7,900 bases of DNA, taken from IMG/VR virus record IMGVR_UViG_2778261030_000021, positions 1-7,900 of that record. One strand, given 5' to 3'. The position numbers and the translations under genes are program-made. The stretch comes from a virus (taxonomy: Duplodnaviria; Heunggongvirae; Uroviricota; Caudoviricetes). Shown here in pieces: positions 1-7,900 of this stretch. Positions within the stretch are counted from its first letter, which is position 1. Each line of letters opens with the position of its first letter. The notes below the pieces were generated by a model, which did no database searches, had not been told where the DNA came from, and saw only the letters and a program-made list of their open reading frames with translations.

Positions 1-744
1 GGAAGGTTTAATTACCTGCAACGTACCAAAATCACGCTCTTTGTCGTTCTTCTCTGCACGGGGTACGGATAAAAAGCCTTTTGCTTTTTTGTCACCGTCG
101 CCCACAACCAGATCGCTTTCTTCGGTTTCCGTGAAGGTGTCGCCAATCTCGCCCGTCAGCCATGAAAGGATGTCCACATCGGAAAAATCCACGATTTCCT
201 GCGTGGTGCGCGGGTACGCATAGACCGGATACAGCTTAATGCTCACCTCGTTAATCTGCGGGGTGCTGGTCTGTTCGCGTGCCTTACCCTCTTCACCGTG
301 GTTAACGGTCGCACCGCCAGCGGAAACAAGCTGCTTAAACTCGTTGCTGCTGATTTTCTTCACGGTACAGATGCGGCGCATGGTGGATTCATCCGTCAGC
401 ATTCGCATGATTTCGGTGTTCAGTTCGGGGATAACGGTATAACCACCATCAGCGGGAACGCCTGTACTCAATGCGCGGGTTTCACCTGTCAGAATGTAGT
501 GACGTAGTTCGGCGGGGTCAGTGGTCTGGCTGTTTTTGCCTGGTTTACTGCGCTCTTCGTCAGCAACGGCCTCAAGGCGGGAGATGTCTTTATCGAGTGA
601 TTCAGCTTTAGCGCGTAATTCGTCAAATTTTGCGCCCTCAGCATCGTTAAGGCTGCGGTTTTCTTTTTCCGCGTTCTCCAGCATGTCGCGCATCTGATTT
701 TTAATGGCGGTTTTCTGCTGGCGTAATTCGATTATTCTCGGCAT
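1..744 (-). CDS. Major capsid protein, HK97-fold family (N-terminal ~248 codons; 3' end beyond window start)
   Basis: Minus-strand frame is open from ATG 744..742 to position 1 with no stop, so it is absent from the ORF track. Own translation: MPRIIELRQQKTAIKNQMRDMLENAEKENRSLNDAEGAKFDELRAKAESLDKDISRLEAVADEER... then ...GGYTVIPELNTEIMRMLTDESTMRRICTV...INEVSIKLYPVYAYPRTTQEIVDFSDVDILSWLTGEIGDTFTETEESDLVVGDGDKKAKGFLS. An N-terminal coiled coil followed by these motifs matches my recollection of HK97-type capsid proteins. AGGA lies 8 nt upstream of the ATG. Confidence 0.65.
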   Translation of the reverse strand, partial: MPRIIELRQQKTAIKNQMRDMLENAEKENRSLNDAEGAKFDELRAKAESLDKDISRLEAVADEERSKPGKNSQTTDPAELRHYILTGETRALSTGVPADGGYTVIPELNTEIMRMLTDESTMRRICTVKKISSNEFKQLVSAGGATVNHGEEGKAREQTSTPQINEVSIKLYPVYAYPRTTQEIVDFSDVDILSWLTGEIGDTFTETEESDLVVGDGDKKAKGFLSVPRAEKNDKERDFGTLQVIKPS

Positions 745-781
745 AAAAAAAGTCCTGGGGTTAAGTAAGGAACTCCAGGAC
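745..781 (-). promoter_or_regulatory. Hairpin (stem 752-758 / 775-781, GTCCTGG/CCAGGAC) followed on the minus strand by U7 (751..745) and then the capsid ATG; the capsid Shine-Dalgarno AGGA lies inside the 3' arm
   Basis: Directly read inverted repeat plus T-run. The geometry is that of an intrinsic terminator, but it ends 1 nt before the start codon and sequesters the RBS. Confidence 0.45.
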
Positions 782-956
782 GCGGCAAAAACTCAACCGT
801 TTTTCATAAGGAAATCAGCAATCGCACCGATCGTTTTCCCGCCTGGTAATGAATATTGGCGAGAACATTAACAGGCGGAAAAGTGGCCCCAGCGTCCTGG
901 CACCACGGGCGAGAATAATCATGATTCAGTTCGGGTAAAATATGCCGATCCGCTCA

Positions 957-986
957 GTGAACAACGTGGAACAACCACGAACAAAT
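957..986. repeat. Three 10-bp-phased direct repeats: gtGAACAACg / tgGAACAACc / acGAACAAAt
   Basis: Directly read; copies begin at 959, 969 and 979. Lies in the ORF-poor region upstream (minus-strand sense) of the capsid gene. Confidence 0.5.
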
Positions 987-1003
987 AATTTACAAAAAAT
1001 GAC

Positions 1004-1025
1004 AAAAAGCCGGATTTCTCCGGCT
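1004..1025 (-). terminator. Intrinsic terminator after the 74-aa gene (7-bp stem AGCCGGA/TCCGGCT, 4-nt loop, U-rich tail on minus strand)
   Basis: Hairpin 1008-1025 and A-run 1004-1008 on the plus strand give hairpin-then-U on the minus strand, 11 nt downstream of the stop at 1036-1038. Confidence 0.6.
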
Positions 1026-1035
1026 GTATGGGTGC

Positions 1036-1260
1036 TCAGTCCCTGATCCCTTTCAGAAATTCTATCAATGCATCTATCTGTTCAGGATTTACCGCCAGCA
1101 TTTCACCGGATAGAGCACATCTCACAAAACCATGCTGATCCTTTTCAATCAGTGCGCCCGTCTCCAGGAATGCGCGGTAATCATTGATGCTCATCGTCTC
1201 CATGTTGTCAGCATGGTATTTATCACGCTGTTTTAATATCTCATCAAATTTCATCGGCAT
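1036..1260 (-). CDS. Hypothetical acidic protein, 74 aa
   Basis: ATG at 1260 with AGAGGA about 9 nt upstream; own terminator downstream. No family recognised. Confidence 0.5.
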   Translation of the reverse strand: MPMKFDEILKQRDKYHADNMETMSINDYRAFLETGALIEKDQHGFVRCALSGEMLAVNPEQIDALIEFLKGIRD

Positions 1261-1356
1261 TGTTTTTTTCCTCTGTTGTGTCTGTTTGTTTCAGATAGTA
1301 ACTATGCCTGACCGTGACGAAAACCCGGTAATGCGCCATACCGTTTCAACTGGTGC

Positions 1357-1380
1357 AAAAAAAGCCGGATTTCTCCGGCT
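1357..1380 (-). terminator. Intrinsic terminator after the PerC-like gene; near-identical copy of the 1004-1025 terminator
   Basis: Same AGCCGGATTTCTCCGGCT hairpin (1363-1380) followed on the minus strand by U7 (1357-1363). A 24-bp core is shared between 1004-1027 and 1360-1383. Confidence 0.65.
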
Positions 1381-1386
1381 GTTTGA

Positions 1387-1659
1387 TTAGCTGTCCTGGT
1401 AATTGCGCCATATTTCATCACCAGCACCATCTATACCCATTTCGGCATAAGTGCGATCGACTGCCTTTTTCAGGTCTCCGAAATTATCCGGCGGCTCCGG
1501 TGCCCTCTGTGCCTTCCTTGAACATTCCAGCCGTCGCATCGTGATGTGATGCCGTTCCTTGTCTGTCTCCACCAGCTGCATGACTTCACCCCATCGCGCC
1601 GCCGCCCTCCGGTAAAAGCCTTTCGCCTCCAGTTCCTCCGCTATGCGGTCATGTACCAT
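1387..1659 (-). CDS. PerC-family-like small transcriptional activator, 90 aa (start moved to ATG 1659; the track ORF begins further upstream at a non-ATG codon)
   Basis: MVHDRIAEELEAKGFYRRAAARWGEVM... resembles the AEKLExKGLWRRAA signature I recall for PerC/Pch proteins. Strong SD GAGGGGGGG immediately upstream of ATG 1659. Confidence 0.5.
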   Translation of the reverse strand: MVHDRIAEELEAKGFYRRAAARWGEVMQLVETDKERHHITMRRLECSRKAQRAPEPPDNFGDLKKAVDRTYAEMGIDGAGDEIWRNYQDS

Positions 1660-1669
1660 CGTCCCCCCC

Positions 1670-2080
1670 TCAGAACGAAATATCATCACCGTAAGGGTCA
1701 TCGCCTCCCGCTGGTGGCTGATTACCCTGTGTGCCTGTGGTTTTGCGTCTGTTCCCGCCTGGACGTGCCGCGCGGGCACTGATTACGCTGTCTGCGATAA
1801 CCTGCCAGCCCTGCCGCGTTTCTCCGTTCTGTCCGGCCCACTGGCTTACCTGCATCGTGCCGGATACGCTGGCAACATCGCCTTTTTGATGTTTAGCCAG
1901 GAAGTCGGCCTGTTTGCCAAATGCGATGACCGATAACCATAACGTCGCCTGTCCGTCCTGTGCCTGGCTGCATGGCAACGATACCGCCATACGCGCCAGC
2001 GTCATCGGTGTGCCCTTGCTGGTCTGTTTTACCTGCGGGTCGTCCACCAGCCGCCCGTAAGCGGCTATCTGTGCCGTCAT
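1670..2080 (-). CDS. ssb: Single-stranded DNA-binding protein (SSB-like OB fold), 136 aa
   Basis: Pattern GRLVDDPQV...TLWLSVIAFGKQADFLAKHQKGDVASVSGTMQVSQWAGQNGETRQGWQVIADSV aligns by eye with E. coli SSB (G.L..DPE...W..V.FGK.AE...KG..V..G....W.D.G.R), and the acidic tail DDPYGDDISF resembles the SSB C-terminal DDDIPF tip. ATG 2080 with GAGAGGTGG SD; start overlaps the upstream stop (ATGA). Confidence 0.75.
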   Translation of the reverse strand: MTAQIAAYGRLVDDPQVKQTSKGTPMTLARMAVSLPCSQAQDGQATLWLSVIAFGKQADFLAKHQKGDVASVSGTMQVSQWAGQNGETRQGWQVIADSVISARAARPGGNRRKTTGTQGNQPPAGGDDPYGDDISF

Positions 2081-2322
2081 AATTCCACCTCTCCGGTTTT
2101 AACGTTGATGGTTGTTACCTGTTCCGCTTCGGCAATCTCCCGTTCTGTCAGCGTGGCAAAGTTTGCCGCTGCTGTGGTCATGAATGCGCTTATCAGTTCG
2201 GGATGTGCTTTCGCGTATCCTTCCCCGGCGTTGCGGTCGATGATTTTTATCGCCACCCTCAGCCAGTGTTCTGTCAAATCAAGGGCGTGAGATTGTGGTT
2301 TTTTGGCGTGCTTCGTTGTCAC
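2077..2322 (-). CDS. Hypothetical protein, 81 aa (GTG start)
   Basis: Codon at 2322..2320 is GTG with GAGGT about 9 nt upstream; stop overlaps the ssb start. No family recognised. Confidence 0.45.
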   Translation of the reverse strand: MTTKHAKKPQSHALDLTEHWLRVAIKIIDRNAGEGYAKAHPELISAFMTTAAANFATLTEREIAEAEQVTTINVKTGEVEL

Positions 2323-2367
2323 AGGCTTTACCTCACAGCAATAAAATAAAATTTTTGCATTTCAACC

Positions 2368-2597
2368 CTTCACCTGTTCACCTTTTGCAATTTTCCCTTT
2401 TTATTCATGATGTTAAGGGGTGAACAGTTTCACAAAAACTATTCACCAACTGTTCACCACTGTTCACCCTTAAAGCTCAATAAAGAATCAAAAAGGTGAA
2501 CAGTGAATAGTTTGGTGAACAGTTCATAAATAACTGTTCACCCTATAATATACTGATATAAAAGACATTTATTGCAGGCTGAACAGTGGTGAACAGT
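2368..2597. repeat. Iteron array: at least 9 full copies of the octamer TGTTCACC / GGTGAACA in both orientations plus partial copies; putative replication origin (P4 ori/crr type)
   Basis: Directly read: TGTTCACC at 2375, 2451, 2461 and 2536; GGTGAACA at 2419, 2495, 2514 and 2589; partials at 2368, 2441, 2503 and 2579. The array starts 13 bp beyond the primase stop. As I recall, TGTTCACC is the type I iteron bound by P4 alpha protein. Confidence 0.7.
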
Positions 2598-2609
2598 TAT
2601 TCCATAAGT

Positions 2610-4427
2610 TTAATTTTTTCCATCGTCATTTGTGACCGATGCACATGATGGCATCCAGTCTTCTGAATCCTCTGTCAGGGTCACATTTGAACGCAAACCG
2701 TGCTTCGTTTTCCGTTTCATATACTCCCTGCCATATTCCGCCATTGCCCCCGGCATATCTTTACCGAAGCGCGTCAGTGTTACAGGTTTACCGAATCCGT
2801 GTGCCCTCATATATGCCAGATAGGCGTGATAAAGATACCTGCGCGGACTGAACGGAATAATTTCGGCATTACCCACTAACAGACCATCACACATTACCGA
2901 CGACATGAGATAGCCGCAGAAGTCCACCAGCGAATCGCCCTCGCGTTTTATCACCAGAGCTTCTTCTGATTTCTGCTGCTCATACAGCAGGCGTTTAGCT
3001 TCGTCCTGGTCAGAAAAACGAGTAAGCAGGTGGCGAATCACAACCGCCAGCTCTCCTTCTATTTTTTCTGCCAGCATGGGGTCGCGTTCGTTTTCCGGTA
3101 CAACCTCCGAAAAATTGAATATCACCCGACGACGTGAAATCCCCCCGCTGCGGTCACTGAATGACATGGCGTTATTGTTCACCGCCAACACTACCGCCTG
3201 AATGCGTGTTGAGTAGGGGGCTTTATGCTTCGGGTCGATTGCCACCTTGTCACCGCCTGTAATGGCCTTAATTCCTGCGCCATCACCAGCGTAACGGGTC
3301 ATATCCGGCATGATAATCAGCGAAAAGCCAACCACTAACGCGCGTTCCCTGGCATCTTCCAGCGCCTTCATGCTTGCCGATACCGTGTTGGCCTTACCCG
3401 CCAGCATGGTGCAAATCTCCGCCATCACGCTTTTACCACTTCCCCCTGGACCTGTTACCTCAATGAATAACTGCCAGTCGTACCGGTTCGCCAGCACCAT
3501 GAATAATGCAGCCAGTACGCGATCCGCCTTGCGGTCATTCTCAGCCACCGAACGGCGTAACCACTTCCAGAAATTCGGCGCATGTGTTGCCAGCGTTTCC
3601 CCCTCTGCTGGTGGGCTGAAAGGTAATTCACTGGCAATTAACAACCAGTCGTTTTTGTTATGCTCCCGAAAATTACCTGTTCTGGTATCAAATACCCCGT
3701 TACTGAATCCAATCAGGTTACGGGCTGTATTCCCCATTACAGGCAAACTTAACTTCATGGTATCGACCGCCGATTTAATGGCGTTCTGCGAATAGCTGAT
3801 CTCCGCATCAATGAAAATCTGTGCCATAGCTCGCTGTAATTCTTTATCCTGTACTGGCTCCCATACAACGCCGTTGTAATGGTGAACAGTGTCAGAGTCA
3901 GCATGAATCGCCAGTTCACCGCCATAATGTGCCAGGAGAACTTCGCCGCGTTGACTTGCTCCCATCTGGTTAAGCGCCAGTGATGAAGCGTTATCGTCTT
4001 TTACCCGCTCTTTTTTCTTTACAGGCAGTTCAACTACCTTTTTCTTTTCCGCCTGCTCTGCCCGTTCACGTTCCAGATATTCGCGCCAGTTCTCCCGTTT
4101 CTGGCTGTGCATTCCTTCAGGGTAATAATCAGCATCCCTGACACCTGCCGCTGCCAGTTTCTGCCCGATGGTATTAACAAGCCCCGGACGCAATAACCCC
4201 GCCTGGTAGAGACGCACCCGATAGCGTCCGTCCGGTACGATTTGCAGCTTATCCAGTTCGGCAAGTTGTTGTTCTCCAAGCCAGACAGGAGGCACGCTGT
4301 CGCCAGCCAGTCGCCCGTCCTGTTCCTGCCACTGCTTCGCATGTGCCCACGCATCATTACCCGCAAAAATGATGACTTCCGTCATTTTGTCACGCGGCTG
4401 GTGTTTTAAATTTGGCGCTTTTTTCAT
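2610..4427 (-). CDS. Replication primase-helicase of the P4-alpha / D5 (SF3 helicase) family, 605 aa (start moved from track position 4442 to ATG 4427)
   Basis: Walker A TGPGGSGKS within a D5-like region. The track ORF begins at a GTG (4442); the first ATG (4427..4425, MKKAPNLKHQ...) has GGAGAGAG upstream and overlaps the stop of the preceding gene (ATGA). Confidence 0.85.
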   Translation of the reverse strand: MKKAPNLKHQPRDKMTEVIIFAGNDAWAHAKQWQEQDGRLAGDSVPPVWLGEQQLAELDKLQIVPDGRYRVRLYQAGLLRPGLVNTIGQKLAAAGVRDADYYPEGMHSQKRENWREYLERERAEQAEKKKVVELPVKKKERVKDDNASSLALNQMGASQRGEVLLAHYGGELAIHADSDTVHHYNGVVWEPVQDKELQRAMAQIFIDAEISYSQNAIKSAVDTMKLSLPVMGNTARNLIGFSNGVFDTRTGNFREHNKNDWLLIASELPFSPPAEGETLATHAPNFWKWLRRSVAENDRKADRVLAALFMVLANRYDWQLFIEVTGPGGSGKSVMAEICTMLAGKANTVSASMKALEDARERALVVGFSLIIMPDMTRYAGDGAGIKAITGGDKVAIDPKHKAPYSTRIQAVVLAVNNNAMSFSDRSGGISRRRVIFNFSEVVPENERDPMLAEKIEGELAVVIRHLLTRFSDQDEAKRLLYEQQKSEEALVIKREGDSLVDFCGYLMSSVMCDGLLVGNAEIIPFSPRRYLYHAYLAYMRAHGFGKPVTLTRFGKDMPGAMAEYGREYMKRKTKHGLRSNVTLTEDSEDWMPSCASVTNDDGKN

Positions 4428-4723
4428 TTCTGCTCTCTCCACGCGGCAATCATGTTTTTCAGTTCCTGTAGTTTTTTATCAACATCCATACATGACACAT
4501 GGTTATTTCTGGAAAGCGGGATTTCCCGCCTGAATCTGCTAATAAAGATCTCCACGTTCAGCGAACTATGAAATGAATAGCCATCACGAATAAAATACAC
4601 ACGGTCAAACATCAGTTCTTTTACCGTTACTCTGTTACCGTTCTTATCCAGATAAATAGCGCCGGGGATAATTTTGGGGTGTGCATAACCGCTGGCAGTC
4701 AAGCCAGATAAATACGTTCTCAT
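4424..4723 (-). CDS. Hypothetical protein, 99 aa, translationally coupled to the primase
   Basis: ATG 4723; stop TGA overlaps the primase ATG. No family recognised. Confidence 0.55.
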   Translation of the reverse strand: MRTYLSGLTASGYAHPKIIPGAIYLDKNGNRVTVKELMFDRVYFIRDGYSFHSSLNVEIFISRFRREIPLSRNNHVSCMDVDKKLQELKNMIAAWREQK

Positions 4724-4729
4724 GATTAT

Positions 4730-5050
4730 TTATCTCAGATTTGAATCAGTATTCGCTTTCTCTATGGCATTTAATGCATCTGTGGCATTTTCAATGGTGC
4801 ACCGTAACGAAATATCAAACTGCCCAAGCATTGCCAGTAACAAGCCAATATTACCCATGTCAATGCGCATAGCCTTTTCGTCATATTCCTCATTTTCTGA
4901 CGCATGCCACATCAGGCTACCAATTGACGAAACAGCCATTGATATATTGTCAGTAGCCCCATCCGCAGCGGAATAAACCTTTTTAGCAATATCATGCTCA
5001 CAGTTAAAATGCGGATTAATCAGGTACTGGTAATTGGTCATGTCAGGCAT
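4730..5050 (-). CDS. Hypothetical acidic protein, 106 aa
   Basis: ATG 5050..5048 overlaps the end of the upstream small gene. Strongly acidic composition (about 17 D/E against 7 K/R). Confidence 0.55.
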   Translation of the reverse strand: MPDMTNYQYLINPHFNCEHDIAKKVYSAADGATDNISMAVSSIGSLMWHASENEEYDEKAMRIDMGNIGLLLAMLGQFDISLRCTIENATDALNAIEKANTDSNLR

Positions 5051-5246
5051 GGAACACCCCCTGACGAATACGGGCGGCGAATACCATCACGCAGCCATCA
5101 GGAGATTGCTGACGCGCGTCCTGTTCGCTGGTGGCCTCAATGGTAATCACGCGCGGTTGTGCCGTGCTCAGGGCGATAAAACGCCAGATGTATTTATTCA
5201 GGTTGTGCGAGTCCCGCCCTTGCGGGTGTGTGGTATGATTTAACAT
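5043..5246 (-). CDS. Small first gene of the leftward operon, 67 aa (possibly Icd/Kil-like; function uncertain)
   Basis: ATG 5246..5244 with GAGGT 5-6 nt upstream; MLNHTTHPQGRDSHNLNKYIWRFIALSTAQPRVITIEATSEQDARQQSPDGCVMVFAARIRQGVFHA. It is the C-terminal 67 codons of the 341-aa track ORF, which I reject as a whole. The Icd-like guess rests on position only. Confidence 0.5.
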   Translation of the reverse strand: MLNHTTHPQGRDSHNLNKYIWRFIALSTAQPRVITIEATSEQDARQQSPDGCVMVFAARIRQGVFHA

Positions 5247-5342
5247 AGCTACCTCGATATTCTTGCTATCGTTGGTGGTTAGACGCCCGGTTAGTGTTAG
5301 CGCACTGCCGGGTTTCGTCGTTTCTGCACCTTGCATCAACAA

Positions 5343-5396
5343 GGTGTTTAACACCAATTTAAGCCCTGGTGTTAAACACGTCAAGTGTTGAACACT
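5343..5396. promoter_or_regulatory. Three 13-bp palindromic operator-like sites (G/A)GTGTT-N-AACAC(C/T) in the divergent promoter region
   Basis: Directly read: 5343-5355 GGTGTTTAACACC (perfect), 5368-5380 GGTGTTAAACACG (one mismatch), 5384-5396 AGTGTTGAACACT (perfect). The third overlaps a plus-strand -35-like TTGAAC (5388-5393), with a weak -10 CATACT at 5411-5416. Confidence 0.55.
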
Positions 5397-5445
5397 TATT
5401 TTTTTTCCTGCATACTGCATTTGTTTTTTGTAAGGGGTACACAAC

Positions 5446-5625
5446 ATGGCGACAAAAGCAGTAAACGCAAAATCACAAACAGTTGCGGCAAGGGTTCCGC
5501 ATGAAGTTATGAACAATGTTGAGGCGGTAAAAATGCCTGGTGAAAGTACAGGGCAGTTTGTAACAGCAGCATTAAAGCGAGAAGTTGAATACCGCCAGCG
5601 TCGCAAGGCCAAAGAGCAGGAATAA
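5446..5625 (+). CDS. Small DNA-binding protein, probable ribbon-helix-helix fold, 59 aa
   Basis: Below the track's size cut-off. ATG 5446 with AAGGGG 8 nt upstream; MATKAVNAKSQTVAARVPHEVMNNVEAVKMPGESTGQFVTAALKREVEYRQRRKAKEQE. Beta-strand (TVAARVP), helix, Gly turn, helix pattern typical of Arc/CopG-type proteins. Confidence 0.5.
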   Translation: MATKAVNAKSQTVAARVPHEVMNNVEAVKMPGESTGQFVTAALKREVEYRQRRKAKEQE

Positions 5626-5682
5626 CCATCACCAGCGCCGTGGTGTAAGGTATTACGGCGCATTGCTATGCAGGACAACACA

Positions 5683-5856
5683 ATGACCGATAAAGAATTG
5701 ACCAAAACATTATCACCGGCACGGAAAAGACGGCGCAGAAAGATAGAGCATGAATCAGAAAGATTCGCGCCATGTGCTTTTGCCCTTGAGCAATTCCTTA
5801 AAGAGTACAGGGAAAAGCGCTCATTGCAGGTATGGCAACGAACTGAACCAGACTGA
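5683..5856 (+). CDS. Hypothetical Arg-rich small protein, 57 aa
   Basis: ATG 5683 with AGGA 7 nt upstream (the track's longer ORF starts at 5668). Contains ARKRRRRK; rare AGA/AGG/CGG codons. Confidence 0.4.
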   Translation: MTDKELTKTLSPARKRRRRKIEHESERFAPCAFALEQFLKEYREKRSLQVWQRTEPD

Positions 5857-5950
5857 TAGCATTGCCCACCAGCCTGATAGCGACTATCATTGCCGTTCTT
5901 ATGTTTGGGATCACACACACAAACGGCGCAGCGGGTTATCTGTTCAGAAA

Positions 5951-5979
5951 GGCGGCTCCATTTCGGGGCCGCTTTTTTT
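5951..5979 (+). terminator. Intrinsic terminator of the plus-strand two-gene unit
   Basis: Stem 5952-5959 GCGGCTCC pairs with 5965-5972 GGGGCCGC (one G-U), 5-nt loop, then T7 at 5973-5979. Confidence 0.7.
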
Positions 5980-6120
5980 ATTCCTGAAAAACCCCAATTT
6001 TGTTGTTTTTCAGTTTCACCAGGGCGAACGAATCCCCGCCCACGTTCGGGCGCATATTCAATCTTCATGGTTATATCTCTGTATTAGTGGATGTGTGGCG
6101 GCTGCGTGCCGCCAGCGTGA

Positions 6121-6309
6121 TTAATGAACTGCCTTGCAGCTATCCTTCCAGGCCAGAACCTCGGATAAAGACCAGCCAACGGAACGACCGCCAAGTTTAC
6201 GACGTGATGGGAATTGTCCGGCCTTTTCCAGGCGGTAGCGGCATGAGCGGCTAAGGCCTGTTAGCTTTTCGCATTCTTTTTCACGTATAAACCGATCAGT
6301 GCTTAACAC
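6121..6309 (-). CDS. alpA: AlpA-family phage transcriptional regulator / excisionase-like HTH protein, 62 aa (GTG start)
   Basis: EKLTGLSRSCRYRLEKAGQFPSRRKLGGRSVGWSLSEVLAW matches the AlpA signature I recall (TG.SRST.Y......FP....LG.R.V.W...E...W). GTG at 6309..6307 with AAGGGG 5 nt upstream; no in-frame ATG is available. Confidence 0.8.
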   Translation of the reverse strand: MLSTDRFIREKECEKLTGLSRSCRYRLEKAGQFPSRRKLGGRSVGWSLSEVLAWKDSCKAVH

Positions 6310-6590
6310 TATTGCCCCTTTCGTTTCTTAAAGAGTTATTTCGTGTTCTATTGCGTTGGGATGTGTCTGATTGTGTCAGGATGATTCAGAGTTGGCAAAT
6401 GTTGAGGACGTATGGTTTACAGAAAGAGGAATAATCAGGATAAAATCATTTAAATTCATGTTAATACAAAGGCATAAAATATTGTTTCATGCCTTTTTTC
6501 TCGCTATTTAAAGAGTGATTCGCTAGTGTATAAAAAACCAGTAACACATTAAAAATCAGCCACTTATAAATCTGTACACTTTTTCGCCTC

Positions 6591-6640
6591 TTGTTCGTAG
6601 TTGTTCCGCATTGTTGCTCATTGTTGCACGTTGTATCTGT
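6591..6640. repeat. Five 10-bp-phased direct repeats beginning TTGTT (TTGTTCGTAG / TTGTTCCGCA / TTGTTGCTCA / TTGTTGCACG / TTGTATCTGT)
   Basis: Directly read, exact 10-bp register, between the integrase stop and the alpA upstream region. Confidence 0.5.
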
Positions 6641-6649
6641 TCGCATATC

Positions 6650-6665
6650 CAGTATGCGCATACTG
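6650..6665. repeat. Perfect 16-bp palindrome CAGTATGCGCATACTG
   Basis: Directly read. Lies 18 bp beyond the integrase stop and is flanked by A/T runs. Confidence 0.55.
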
Positions 6666-6682
6666 AAAAAATACGAAAAAAA

Positions 6683-7900
6683 TTATTTTCTTCTGGCTAC
6701 TGGTAGCGTGGTTACGTTTTCATGTGTTCCCGCCAGTATCCCTAACCGCTCCATCCACATATCCAGCGCATTGCGTTTAGCATCCAGATAACGGGAATGA
6801 TTATAAACTCGCTGCATTCCTGGCATCTGGTGGCCTGTAAGCTGCTCCACGACATGCGGATCAACGCCTAAATCGTTCAGCATGGTTGTAAAGGTGCGCC
6901 GGATGTCATGCAGTGACCAGTGAGGGTGATTAAGCCTCCTGTGCGCTAATCTTCCATACTGCGATACGCTGGCCTCCTGTTTCACTGCCCCCAGCAATAA
7001 GCCCGTGTGCCTGTTCTGCTCCACCAGCTGCGTGACGAACGGCAGGATCGCTTCCGGTATGGGCCGGAATATTGCGACCTTCGTTTTGCTGTGCTCCTTC
7101 GGAACGGTCCATAGCATTTCCGTAAAATCCCACTCCCCGATCTCTGATAACCTCAGTTCTACCGTTCTGGCTCCGAAGACAATCAGGAGGCGGATTAACG
7201 CGACGTAGTAAGGGGAAAATATTTTTTTATCCAGCGCCTGCAATAACTCGCCCAGTTCTTTGGTGCTTAAGACACGTTCGCTTATATCCGGTTTTTTCCC
7301 AACGTCCGCCACGTTCAGATCGTCCAGAACGTTGCTGATTGCATAGCGCCGCCTACGGCAGAACTTAAGCGCCTGTTTGCACGCCTGTAGCACGAATCCG
7401 GCAGTAACAGGCGTTCGCTTTGCCACCTGGTCAAAACAGGCCAGCCAGTGCCGTAGCTCGCATTTATCCAGCGGCATAGCACCAATCTGCTGTATTACGT
7501 GATTATTAAGTCGCCTTTTCAGGGCGATATAATCCACGCGGTTTTCCTTTACGTAAGACTCAAGCCAGTAGGTGAGCGCATCGCCAACCGTTACGGGCTT
7601 TAACGCTTCCTGTACGGTGTAATTCATCTCATGACGTGGATTTTTCCCCTCAGCCAGCCATGCGCGGCACTGGGCGGCTTTTTCCCTGGCTGCTTTCAGA
7701 CTCAGATCAGGATAATTTCCCAGCTTAATACGTTCCGGTCGTGTCTCTCTTCCCGTTCCTGCCCTGTAAGTGAAATACCAGGTTAATTTCCCTGATGTTA
7801 AATATTTCACGCTCAGATTTCCGCCATCGCTATAAAACGTGTTTTTCTCCGCTGGCTTACCATGAAGTTTCCTTAGCAATGTGTCGCTCAGTTTGTTCAT
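6683..7900 (-). CDS. int: Tyrosine recombinase / phage integrase (P4-type), 405 aa
   Basis: 405-aa ORF starting with ATG exactly at the window edge (the true start could lie upstream). Integrase-like C-terminal region including HDIRRTFTT and the tail ...MQRVYNHSRYLDAKRNALDMW with candidate catalytic Tyr. Confidence 0.88.
   Translation of the reverse strand: MNKLSDTLLRKLHGKPAEKNTFYSDGGNLSVKYLTSGKLTWYFTYRAGTGRETRPERIKLGNYPDLSLKAAREKAAQCRAWLAEGKNPRHEMNYTVQEALKPVTVGDALTYWLESYVKENRVDYIALKRRLNNHVIQQIGAMPLDKCELRHWLACFDQVAKRTPVTAGFVLQACKQALKFCRRRRYAISNVLDDLNVADVGKKPDISERVLSTKELGELLQALDKKIFSPYYVALIRLLIVFGARTVELRLSEIGEWDFTEMLWTVPKEHSKTKVAIFRPIPEAILPFVTQLVEQNRHTGLLLGAVKQEASVSQYGRLAHRRLNHPHWSLHDIRRTFTTMLNDLGVDPHVVEQLTGHQMPGMQRVYNHSRYLDAKRNALDMWMERLGILAGTHENVTTLPVARRK

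Follow-up and report, generated by a model that had tools for sequence, protein, structure and literature searches.

A twelve-site iteron array next to a P4 alpha-like helicase gene is the probable replication origin of a capsid-forming phage-inducible chromosomal island of Escherichia coli

The DNA analyzed here is the 7,900-nucleotide stretch at positions 1 to 7,900 of the IMG/VR virus record IMGVR_UViG_2778261030_000021 (hereafter the window), which holds part of an element integrated in a bacterial genome. Directly 3′ of its helicase gene lies an array of twelve exact or degenerate copies of the octamer TGTTCACC, which we consider, with a probability of roughly 85% as judged from sequence comparisons, to be the origin from which a capsid-forming phage-inducible chromosomal island (cf-PICI) replicates vegetatively. 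The proposed origin is of a known kind, that of satellite phage P4 and the Gram-negative PICIs, and is well supported. We assign this role to the array because the octamer is strongly enriched and arranged in a dyad, because both octamer and layout are those of P4, because the adjacent initiator is homologous to P4 alpha, because the array is conserved and covaries with the DNA-binding domain of the initiator, because a related region of the island EcCICFT073 functioned as an origin, and because only a single such cluster is present in related elements.

The array (229 bp) lies inside a 287-bp intergenic gap that separates the stop codon of the minus-strand initiator gene from the start of the next minus-strand open reading frame (ORF; 2077-2322). 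The first site begins 15 bp past the initiator stop codon (2610-2612), which bears out the placement immediately 3′ of the primase given in the initial annotation. Exact copies of TGTTCACC occur 10 times on the two strands of the window, as opposed to 0.31 expected, and this count was reached in none of 200 dinucleotide-preserving shuffles. Eight of these copies fall within 2375-2595, one fewer than the minimum of nine originally claimed for the region, with four on the plus strand (2375, 2451, 2461, and 2535) and four on the minus strand (2419, 2495, 2514, and 2588). Two sites with one mismatch and two with two mismatches bring the total to 12, and both of the latter (2367 on the plus strand and 2502 on the minus strand) occupy positions of good sites in relatives. 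Thus, the description of partial copies, both orientations, and AT-rich DNA holds, and the G+C content of the array is 35% versus 49% for the window. The remaining two exact copies are isolated within the helicase ORF (3176-3183, plus strand; 3881-3888, minus strand). We rejected these as additional sites, and they probably reflect chance; the copy at 3881 is missing from a relative that is 97.6% identical, and intragenic copies are not conserved among relatives.

The spacing of the sites, initially called irregular, proved to be ordered. Read in the direction of the gene, the site orientations are ++ - +++ | --- + --, and all six mirror pairs have a midpoint of 2480-2481.5, which places a dyad axis at approximately 2480.5. 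Neighboring sites are about 8-11 bp apart. A 26-bp center with 23% G+C has six sites to either side of it, and each arm contains one more AT-rich spacer of 35-36 bp. When the array is aligned without gaps to its own reverse complement, 108 of 229 positions are identical, whereas 1,000 shuffles gave 79.5 ± 5.0 with a maximum of 98, so that the observed value is about 5.7 standard deviations higher.

The P4 record (NC_001609) annotates TGTTCACC as an "ori type 1 repeat." The initial annotation had likened the region to P4 ori/crr, and a motif scan of P4 indeed finds the octamer in both elements, with six exact copies in ori and, in crr, ten copies of which five are exact and five degenerate. An extended consensus, (A)CTGTTCACC, is common to the P4 sites and the window array. 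The six P4 ori sites have the orientations - - - + - - and the offsets 0, 10, 21, 43, 86, and 96. The left arm of the window array, when read outward from the center, has the same orientations with offsets 0, 10, 21, 42, 86, and 94, and the right arm also has the P4 ori orientations with offsets 0, 7, 19, 40, 83, and 93. Because the orientations and offsets of both arms follow P4 ori, the array is two P4-ori-like six-site units joined as an inverted repeat. The genome of P4 instead has two separate cis elements 4.5 kb apart that are both required, namely ori with its six sites and crr with two direct 120-bp repeats. Therefore, the initial comparison stands with regard to the octamer and the homologous origin-binding domain, but the window element has two ori-like units fused at one place rather than a separate ori and crr. 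No second octamer cluster was found in the complete 97.6% identical element or in the 16.5-kb genome of vB_KppS-Ant, a related element described below. It is crr that lies directly 3′ of the alpha gene, the position that the array occupies in the window, and P4 has a terminator between alpha and crr, whereas none was seen in the window. A full-text literature search for TGTTCACC gave matches only in unrelated primer sequences.

The initiator gene is annotated as encoding a "DNA primase family protein." Its ORF of 610 codons begins with GTG, but homologues and RefSeq place the start at M6 (window position 4427) to give a 605-amino-acid protein; residue numbers used here refer to the 610-amino-acid ORF. 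Pfam detects the domains D5_N, DUF5906 (a superfamily 3 [SF3] helicase), and Pox_D5. At the C terminus, residues 502-598 are homologous to the origin-binding domain of P4 alpha, the structure of which is solved (1KA8; E value of 2.3e-24), and the helicase core gives a weak match to the SaPI5 primase-helicase 7OLA (E value of 1.3e-10). Over residues 150-605, the protein is 50% identical to residues 320-776 of full-length P4 alpha. Nothing in the window initiator aligns to the N-terminal 320 residues of alpha, which contain its primase. This primase region of alpha comprises zinc-binding and TOPRIM parts. In its place, the window initiator carries an unrelated module of about 150 residues, for which no Pfam family was found and whose predicted fold is weakly TOPRIM-like. 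The gene product lacks the P4 alpha primase domain, and the original label of primase is thus tentative. No DxD motif was seen in this N-terminal module, so that primase activity of the initiator is at most putative. With the P4 primase domain absent, priming may be carried out by the N-terminal module or by the host primase.

The N-terminal module also occurs in other contexts. Other E. coli proteins carry it joined to RepA-type (PF13481) helicases, and some E. coli proteins have it fused straight to a single-stranded-DNA-binding protein (SSB) domain. The latter appear to have arisen by deletion of the helicase, binding domain, and iteron array, and they are probably replication-dead copies.

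Functional data are available for a related island. The origin of E. coli PICIs was placed immediately 3′ of pri-rep, with groups of iterons on either side of AT-rich DNA (Fillol-Salom et al. 2018, ISME J; PMC6092414). In the same study, a rep-ori fragment of EcCICFT073 maintained a temperature-sensitive plasmid, and deletion of rep or ori impaired replication. We located EcCICFT073 in the CFT073 genome and found 48% identity between its Pri-Rep and the window protein across the full length. Its neighbors are also those of the window: a DUF4222 gene, pri-rep, the origin, a hypothetical gene, and genes for an SSB and a PerC-family regulator. Past the pri-rep stop codon, at 15-233 bp, we found ten TGTCTACC/TATCTACC sites with zero or one mismatch on the scaffold ++ - +++ -- (+) --. 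The distances from the stop codon are 15, 24, 72, 92, 103, and 112 bp for the first sites of EcCICFT073 and 15, 25, 68, 89, 101, and 108 bp for those of the window. The iteron cores of the two elements differ (TGTCTACC/TATCTACC versus TGTTCACC), and so does a segment of the origin-binding domain that covaries with them (RKVKGVTQTN versus KRKTKHGLRSN). Furthermore, the window element has its own capsid and terminase genes, whereas EcCICFT073 is largely devoid of these. Given the homologous Pri-Rep, the same neighborhood, and the same site order, the window array is, by homology, the counterpart of the functionally tested EcCICFT073 origin with another DNA word.

A more distant likeness is evident with the origins of Staphylococcus aureus pathogenicity islands (SaPIs, which are Gram-positive PICIs with self-loading Pri/Rep helicases; SaPI5 Rep, PDB 7OLA; PMC9371898). 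In these islands, as in the window, the origin is 3′ of rep, iterons surround AT-rich DNA, and the initiator itself is the helicase. However, the iteron sequences, the scaffold of sites, and the DNA-binding domain are unrelated, and therefore the likeness is one of organization and not of close homology.

The window extends from the integrase gene to the 5′ part of a capsid gene and, between these, encodes a DUF4222 protein, the "primase," an unknown 81-amino-acid protein, an SSB, and a PerC-family regulator. The 97.6% identical copy in E. coli strain 2313 is an element of approximately 13.8 kb that goes on with genes for the major capsid protein, protease, portal, head-closure, connector, and HNH proteins and the small and large terminase subunits. 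Genes for tail or lysis functions are absent from its annotation, as are sid, psu, delta, and epsilon of P4. Published criteria for cf-PICIs (bioRxiv 10.1101/2025.02.11.637232) are a size of 10-18 kb, an integrase, a replication module, the element's own capsid, portal, protease, connector, HNH, and terminase genes, and the absence of tail and lysis genes. Because the gene content of the strain 2313 relative fits this description, the host element is, as judged from its genes, a cf-PICI in E. coli and not a P4-like satellite, which would use the capsid genes of its helper. It also resembles the EcCIEDL933-type cf-PICIs (Alqurainy et al., bioRxiv 10.1101/2022.09.08.507074), which are about 14 kb in size and have the same gene content, running from the integrase through regulation, replication, capsid, protease, portal, head-closure, connector, and HNH genes to the terminases, again with no tail or lysis genes. 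In the cf-PICI papers compared here, neither iterons nor a replication origin is mentioned, and the origin of this family thus appears not to have been described in them. In strain 2313 (NZ_AP027159.1, 3879315-3903214), the element sits in the ETT2 type III secretion gene cluster, where many genes are frameshifted.

The array is widely conserved. A megablast search of a phage collection returned vB_KppS-Ant, an induced element of 16.5 kb, as the sole match. Its initiator is 74% identical to that of the window, and eight exact and three near copies of the octamer lie directly 3′ of the gene, with diverged flanking bases (GTGTTCACC in place of CTGTTCACC). A broader scan found 427 relatives and, at one genome per species, gave 80 representative loci from across Enterobacterales, with 61-86% identity. 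At least four sites of the locus's own octamer are present within 330 bp past the gene in all 80 loci. When the best of six class octamers was chosen for each locus and the flanks were then scored with that pattern, the mean number of class sites per 330 bp was 8.1 after the gene versus 0.29 in the flanks. The order of the sites and the distances between them are near constant across the 80 loci. Among 11 loci with TGTTCACC sites, 57 of 96 iteron columns are invariant, compared to 30 of 147 spacer columns (Fisher's P = 9e-10). The 287-bp intergenic region was found in 668 of 5,426 complete E. coli genomes, at up to six places per genome, and none of the listed genome matches has an annotation beneath it.

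Several features other than the iterons are also conserved. A T/A tract (TATTTTTTAATTTTAT in relatives) lies past the last iteron pair (window 2330-2362), and short non-iteron blocks occur within the array, namely GTTAA(T/G)GG before site 3 and TAAC..ATGAA after site 10. The tract and blocks could represent an unwinding element, a site for a bending protein, or a promoter for the downstream genes. Distant homologues of the initiator, with 33-38% identity, are present in the Pasteurella element Pmp7 and the Serratia phage Scapp. In Pmp7 (1213-1385), the DNA 3′ of the gene has at most degenerate TnTTCAC-like repeats, and in the Scapp protein the same core of helicase and binding domain is joined to yet another N-terminal module, a third type that is much longer.

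Although the array at this place was found in all relatives sampled, the octamer itself is not fixed. On a constant scaffold, the core falls into about six classes among the 80 loci: TGTTCACC (62 loci), TCTCCACC (6 loci), TGTCTACC (5 loci), TGTCCGCC (3 loci), TGTCCACC (3 loci), and TATCTACC (1 locus). Two of the TGTCCACC loci have mixed TnTCCACC arrays together with a binding-domain segment of the TCTCCACC type. The positions T1, T3, C7, and C8 are invariant in all six class octamers. The binding domain changes along with the octamer. It is well conserved apart from one segment, which corresponds to residues 573-590 of the window protein. In this segment, the motif (K/R)(K/R)(K/R/H)-(T/S)KxG(I/L/M)(R/Q)(S/T)N occurs in 56 of 59 loci with TGTTCACC, P4 among them, and in none of the 18 loci of the TGTCTACC, TCTCCACC, TGTCCGCC, TGTCCACC, and TATCTACC classes. 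Six of nine unclassed loci also have it, and these six are from Xenorhabdus and carry degenerate sites of the TGTTCACC type. Most non-TGTTCACC loci have class-specific replacements or insertions of one or five residues, for example RKKS-TKGNMRSN, KRKQCTRGPDKGRTISN, and KKAESKKKATRGRIQSN. The helicase domains of the non-TGTTCACC classes are 72-93% identical to that of the window, and these values lie within the span of 52-100% seen for the TGTTCACC class. We infer that TGTTCACC came first and was retained through deep divergence, with the remaining octamers as subsequent switches.

Among the comparative findings presented here, this covariation most strongly suggests that the binding domain reads the sites, and it singles out the segment of about 18 residues as a candidate determinant of specificity. 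Differences in initiator-origin specificity between islands are a familiar theme for SaPIs. Tentatively, and with some reservation, we suggest that these loci form a natural series of specificity switches, in which a fixed scaffold of 12 sites is retained and the octamer is rewritten at all sites together, in at least six variants, each accompanied by a minor change, either a substitution or an insertion, within a single loop-like stretch of the origin-binding domain. Such a series might constitute a readable code of recognition, with replicons that are orthogonal to one another. If so, P4, P4-like prophages, and cf-PICIs that keep TGTTCACC could fire one another's origins, and cross-activation is conceivable because several co-resident elements have one iteron specificity. 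With up to six arrays in an E. coli genome, an induced satellite might even amplify another in place.

The features above are consistent with the following scheme for initiation. After induction, the product of the adjacent gene would be made, with the N-terminal module, the SF3 (D5-type) helicase, and the C-terminal origin-binding domain that our searches indicate. The binding domain, being of the P4 alpha type, would recognize the TGTTCACC sites, which by their sequence form two inverted six-site units that each have the P4 ori layout and meet at the AT-rich 26-bp center. By analogy with other SF3 initiator-helicases, the mirrored arms would position two helicase assemblies in a head-to-head arrangement, so that the AT-rich spacer could be melted and unwinding could proceed bidirectionally. 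Initiation would be independent of host DnaA, and this fits with the lack of DnaA boxes (with at most one mismatch) and GATC sites in 2323-2609. P4 replication likewise involves bidirectional unwinding and does not need DnaA. Finally, the covariation suggests that the segment at residues ~573-590 would set which octamer core is read, such that initiator and origin evolve as a matched pair.

Several points weigh against the assignment of the array as an origin. Its proposed function is deduced from homology and comparisons among loci and from the assay of a relative that has 48% identity and a different octamer. The covariation is seen in few clades and thus represents few independent switches. 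Moreover, the structure prediction for the binding domain has a pLDDT (predicted local distance difference test) of 39 on the basis of a shallow alignment, and to call the varying segment the "wing" of a winged helix is an assumption. Transcription probably runs through the array, with no terminator in between, and a regulatory role is possible. Finally, the P4 array at the same position, crr, is an auxiliary cis element and not the start site. This last point can be developed into an alternative, by which the window array would be a crr-like element that binds the initiator and stimulates replication from a start site elsewhere, and the identity of both octamer and exact position with those of crr speaks for it. 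We nevertheless regard this as improbable, given that the complete 97.6% identical element and vB_KppS-Ant have only the single cluster, that the arms are laid out as P4 ori and not as the crr repeats, and that the rep gene plus its 3′ region sufficed for plasmid replication in EcCICFT073 (PMC6092414).

About equally improbable, in our estimation, is a mainly transcriptional role, in which the array would act as operator or promoter on the downstream genes (the hypothetical protein, SSB, PerC, and the capsid operon) and bind either the helicase protein or another regulator. The location in the 287-bp intergenic gap, in which a promoter/terminator scan found no terminator-like site between the initiator gene and the array, agrees with such a role, as does the T/A tract that relatives retain after the last pair of sites, and iterons of other replicons are generally known to double as operators. 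The scan found no sigma-70-like promoter on the minus strand, however; its sole promoter-like match is weak, is on the plus strand (2318-2347), and is no better than chance. Twelve sites with dyad symmetry and AT-rich spacers are also far more than an operator needs, the sites covary with the origin-binding domain of the initiator, and the homologous region of EcCICFT073 works as an origin. Any regulatory function is possible as a side role only. Even less credible are readings that give the array no part in replication, namely as a repeat due to chance or low complexity or as a packaging (cos/pac) site. Short repeats can build up in AT-rich intergenic DNA, and the element does encode its own terminase, but the shuffles did not reproduce the number of octamers, and the scaffold recurs in every one of the Enterobacterales loci with iteron columns more conserved than spacers. 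With regard to packaging, approximately 6 kb separate the array from the terminase genes of the 97.6% identical relative, and P4, which packages via its own separate cos site, has the octamer annotated in ori and crr, its elements for replication. Both of these readings are effectively refuted by the conservation and covariation data, and we retain the interpretation of the array as an origin.

The present analysis places the probable origin for a family of satellites found frequently in E. coli. Modest new points are the exact P4 octamer in a cf-PICI origin, its arrangement in two inverted P4-ori-like units, and the matched switches of iteron and binding domain, whereas the accepted view of how such origins work is unchanged. 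P4 and the cf-PICIs have one initiator-recognition module and one DNA word in common, and they differ in the N-terminal (priming) module and in lifestyle. As had been anticipated for the octamer, iteron class offers a simple means of typing these elements. The helicase gene together with ~230 bp should form a compact replicon module that is independent of host DnaA, and modules of different classes might be mutually orthogonal. Coordinates of the array and its associated features are listed in Table 1.

Table 1. Positions of the iteron array, its sites and spacers, and neighboring genes and domains in the window
Feature	Position	Strand	Remarks
Whole iteron array	2367..2595		Proposed replication origin; 12 sites, dyad symmetry ~2480.5
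Site 1	2588..2595	-	TGTTCACC, exact; gene orientation +15
Site 2	2578..2585	-	TGTTCAGC, 1 mismatch
AT-rich spacer	2543..2577		35 bp, 23% G+C; counterpart of AT-rich gap in P4 ori
Site 3	2535..2542	+	TGTTCACC, exact
Site 4	2514..2521	-	TGTTCACC, exact
Site 5	2502..2509	-	TATTCACT, 2 mismatches; 1-nt overlap with site 6; TATTCACC at this register in relatives
Site 6	2495..2502	-	TGTTCACC, exact
Central AT-rich spacer	2469..2494		26 bp, 23% G+C, on symmetry axis; candidate melting site (by inference from PMC6092414)
Site 7	2461..2468	+	TGTTCACC, exact
Site 8	2451..2458	+	TGTTCACC, exact
Site 9	2440..2447	+	TATTCACC, 1 mismatch
Site 10	2419..2426	-	TGTTCACC, exact
AT-rich spacer	2383..2418		36 bp, 28% G+C; mirrors spacer 2543-2577
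Site 11	2375..2382	+	TGTTCACC, exact
Site 12	2367..2374	+	CCTTCACC, 2 mismatches
Initiator gene	2610..4442	-	Annotated "DNA primase family protein"; 610-aa ORF from GTG
C-terminal origin-binding domain, aa 502-598	2649..2939	-	Homologue of P4 alpha origin-binding domain (PDB 1KA8); Pfam Pox_D5
Origin-binding domain segment, aa 573-590	2673..2726	-	EYMKRKTKHGLRSNVTLT; proposed specificity determinant; covaries with iteron class
D5_N and SF3 helicase core, aa 167-455	3078..3944	-	
N-terminal ~150-aa module	3993..4442	-	Sequence unrelated to P4 alpha primase domain
SSB gene	1670..2080	-	Element-encoded single-stranded-DNA-binding protein; two genes downstream of array; replication module
Integrase gene	6683..7900		

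An Rfam scan of the window gave no match. Small ORFs that cross the array, such as one of 42 amino acids on the plus strand (2295-2423), were dismissed as mechanical. Elsewhere in the window, the minus-strand stretch at 5043-6068 reads as one ORF of 341 amino acids with no Pfam match, and in the 97.6% identical relative the same stretch is annotated with an Icd-like gene, a truncated pseudogene, and an opposite-strand YlcI/YnfO gene; the window has either an intact longer gene here or a mechanical run-through of the reading frame. The PerC-family ORF (1387-1779, minus strand) has 130 amino acids when read from its first GTG, and RefSeq gives 90 amino acids for it in the close relative. The 130-amino-acid version, which overlaps the SSB gene, is probably spurious.
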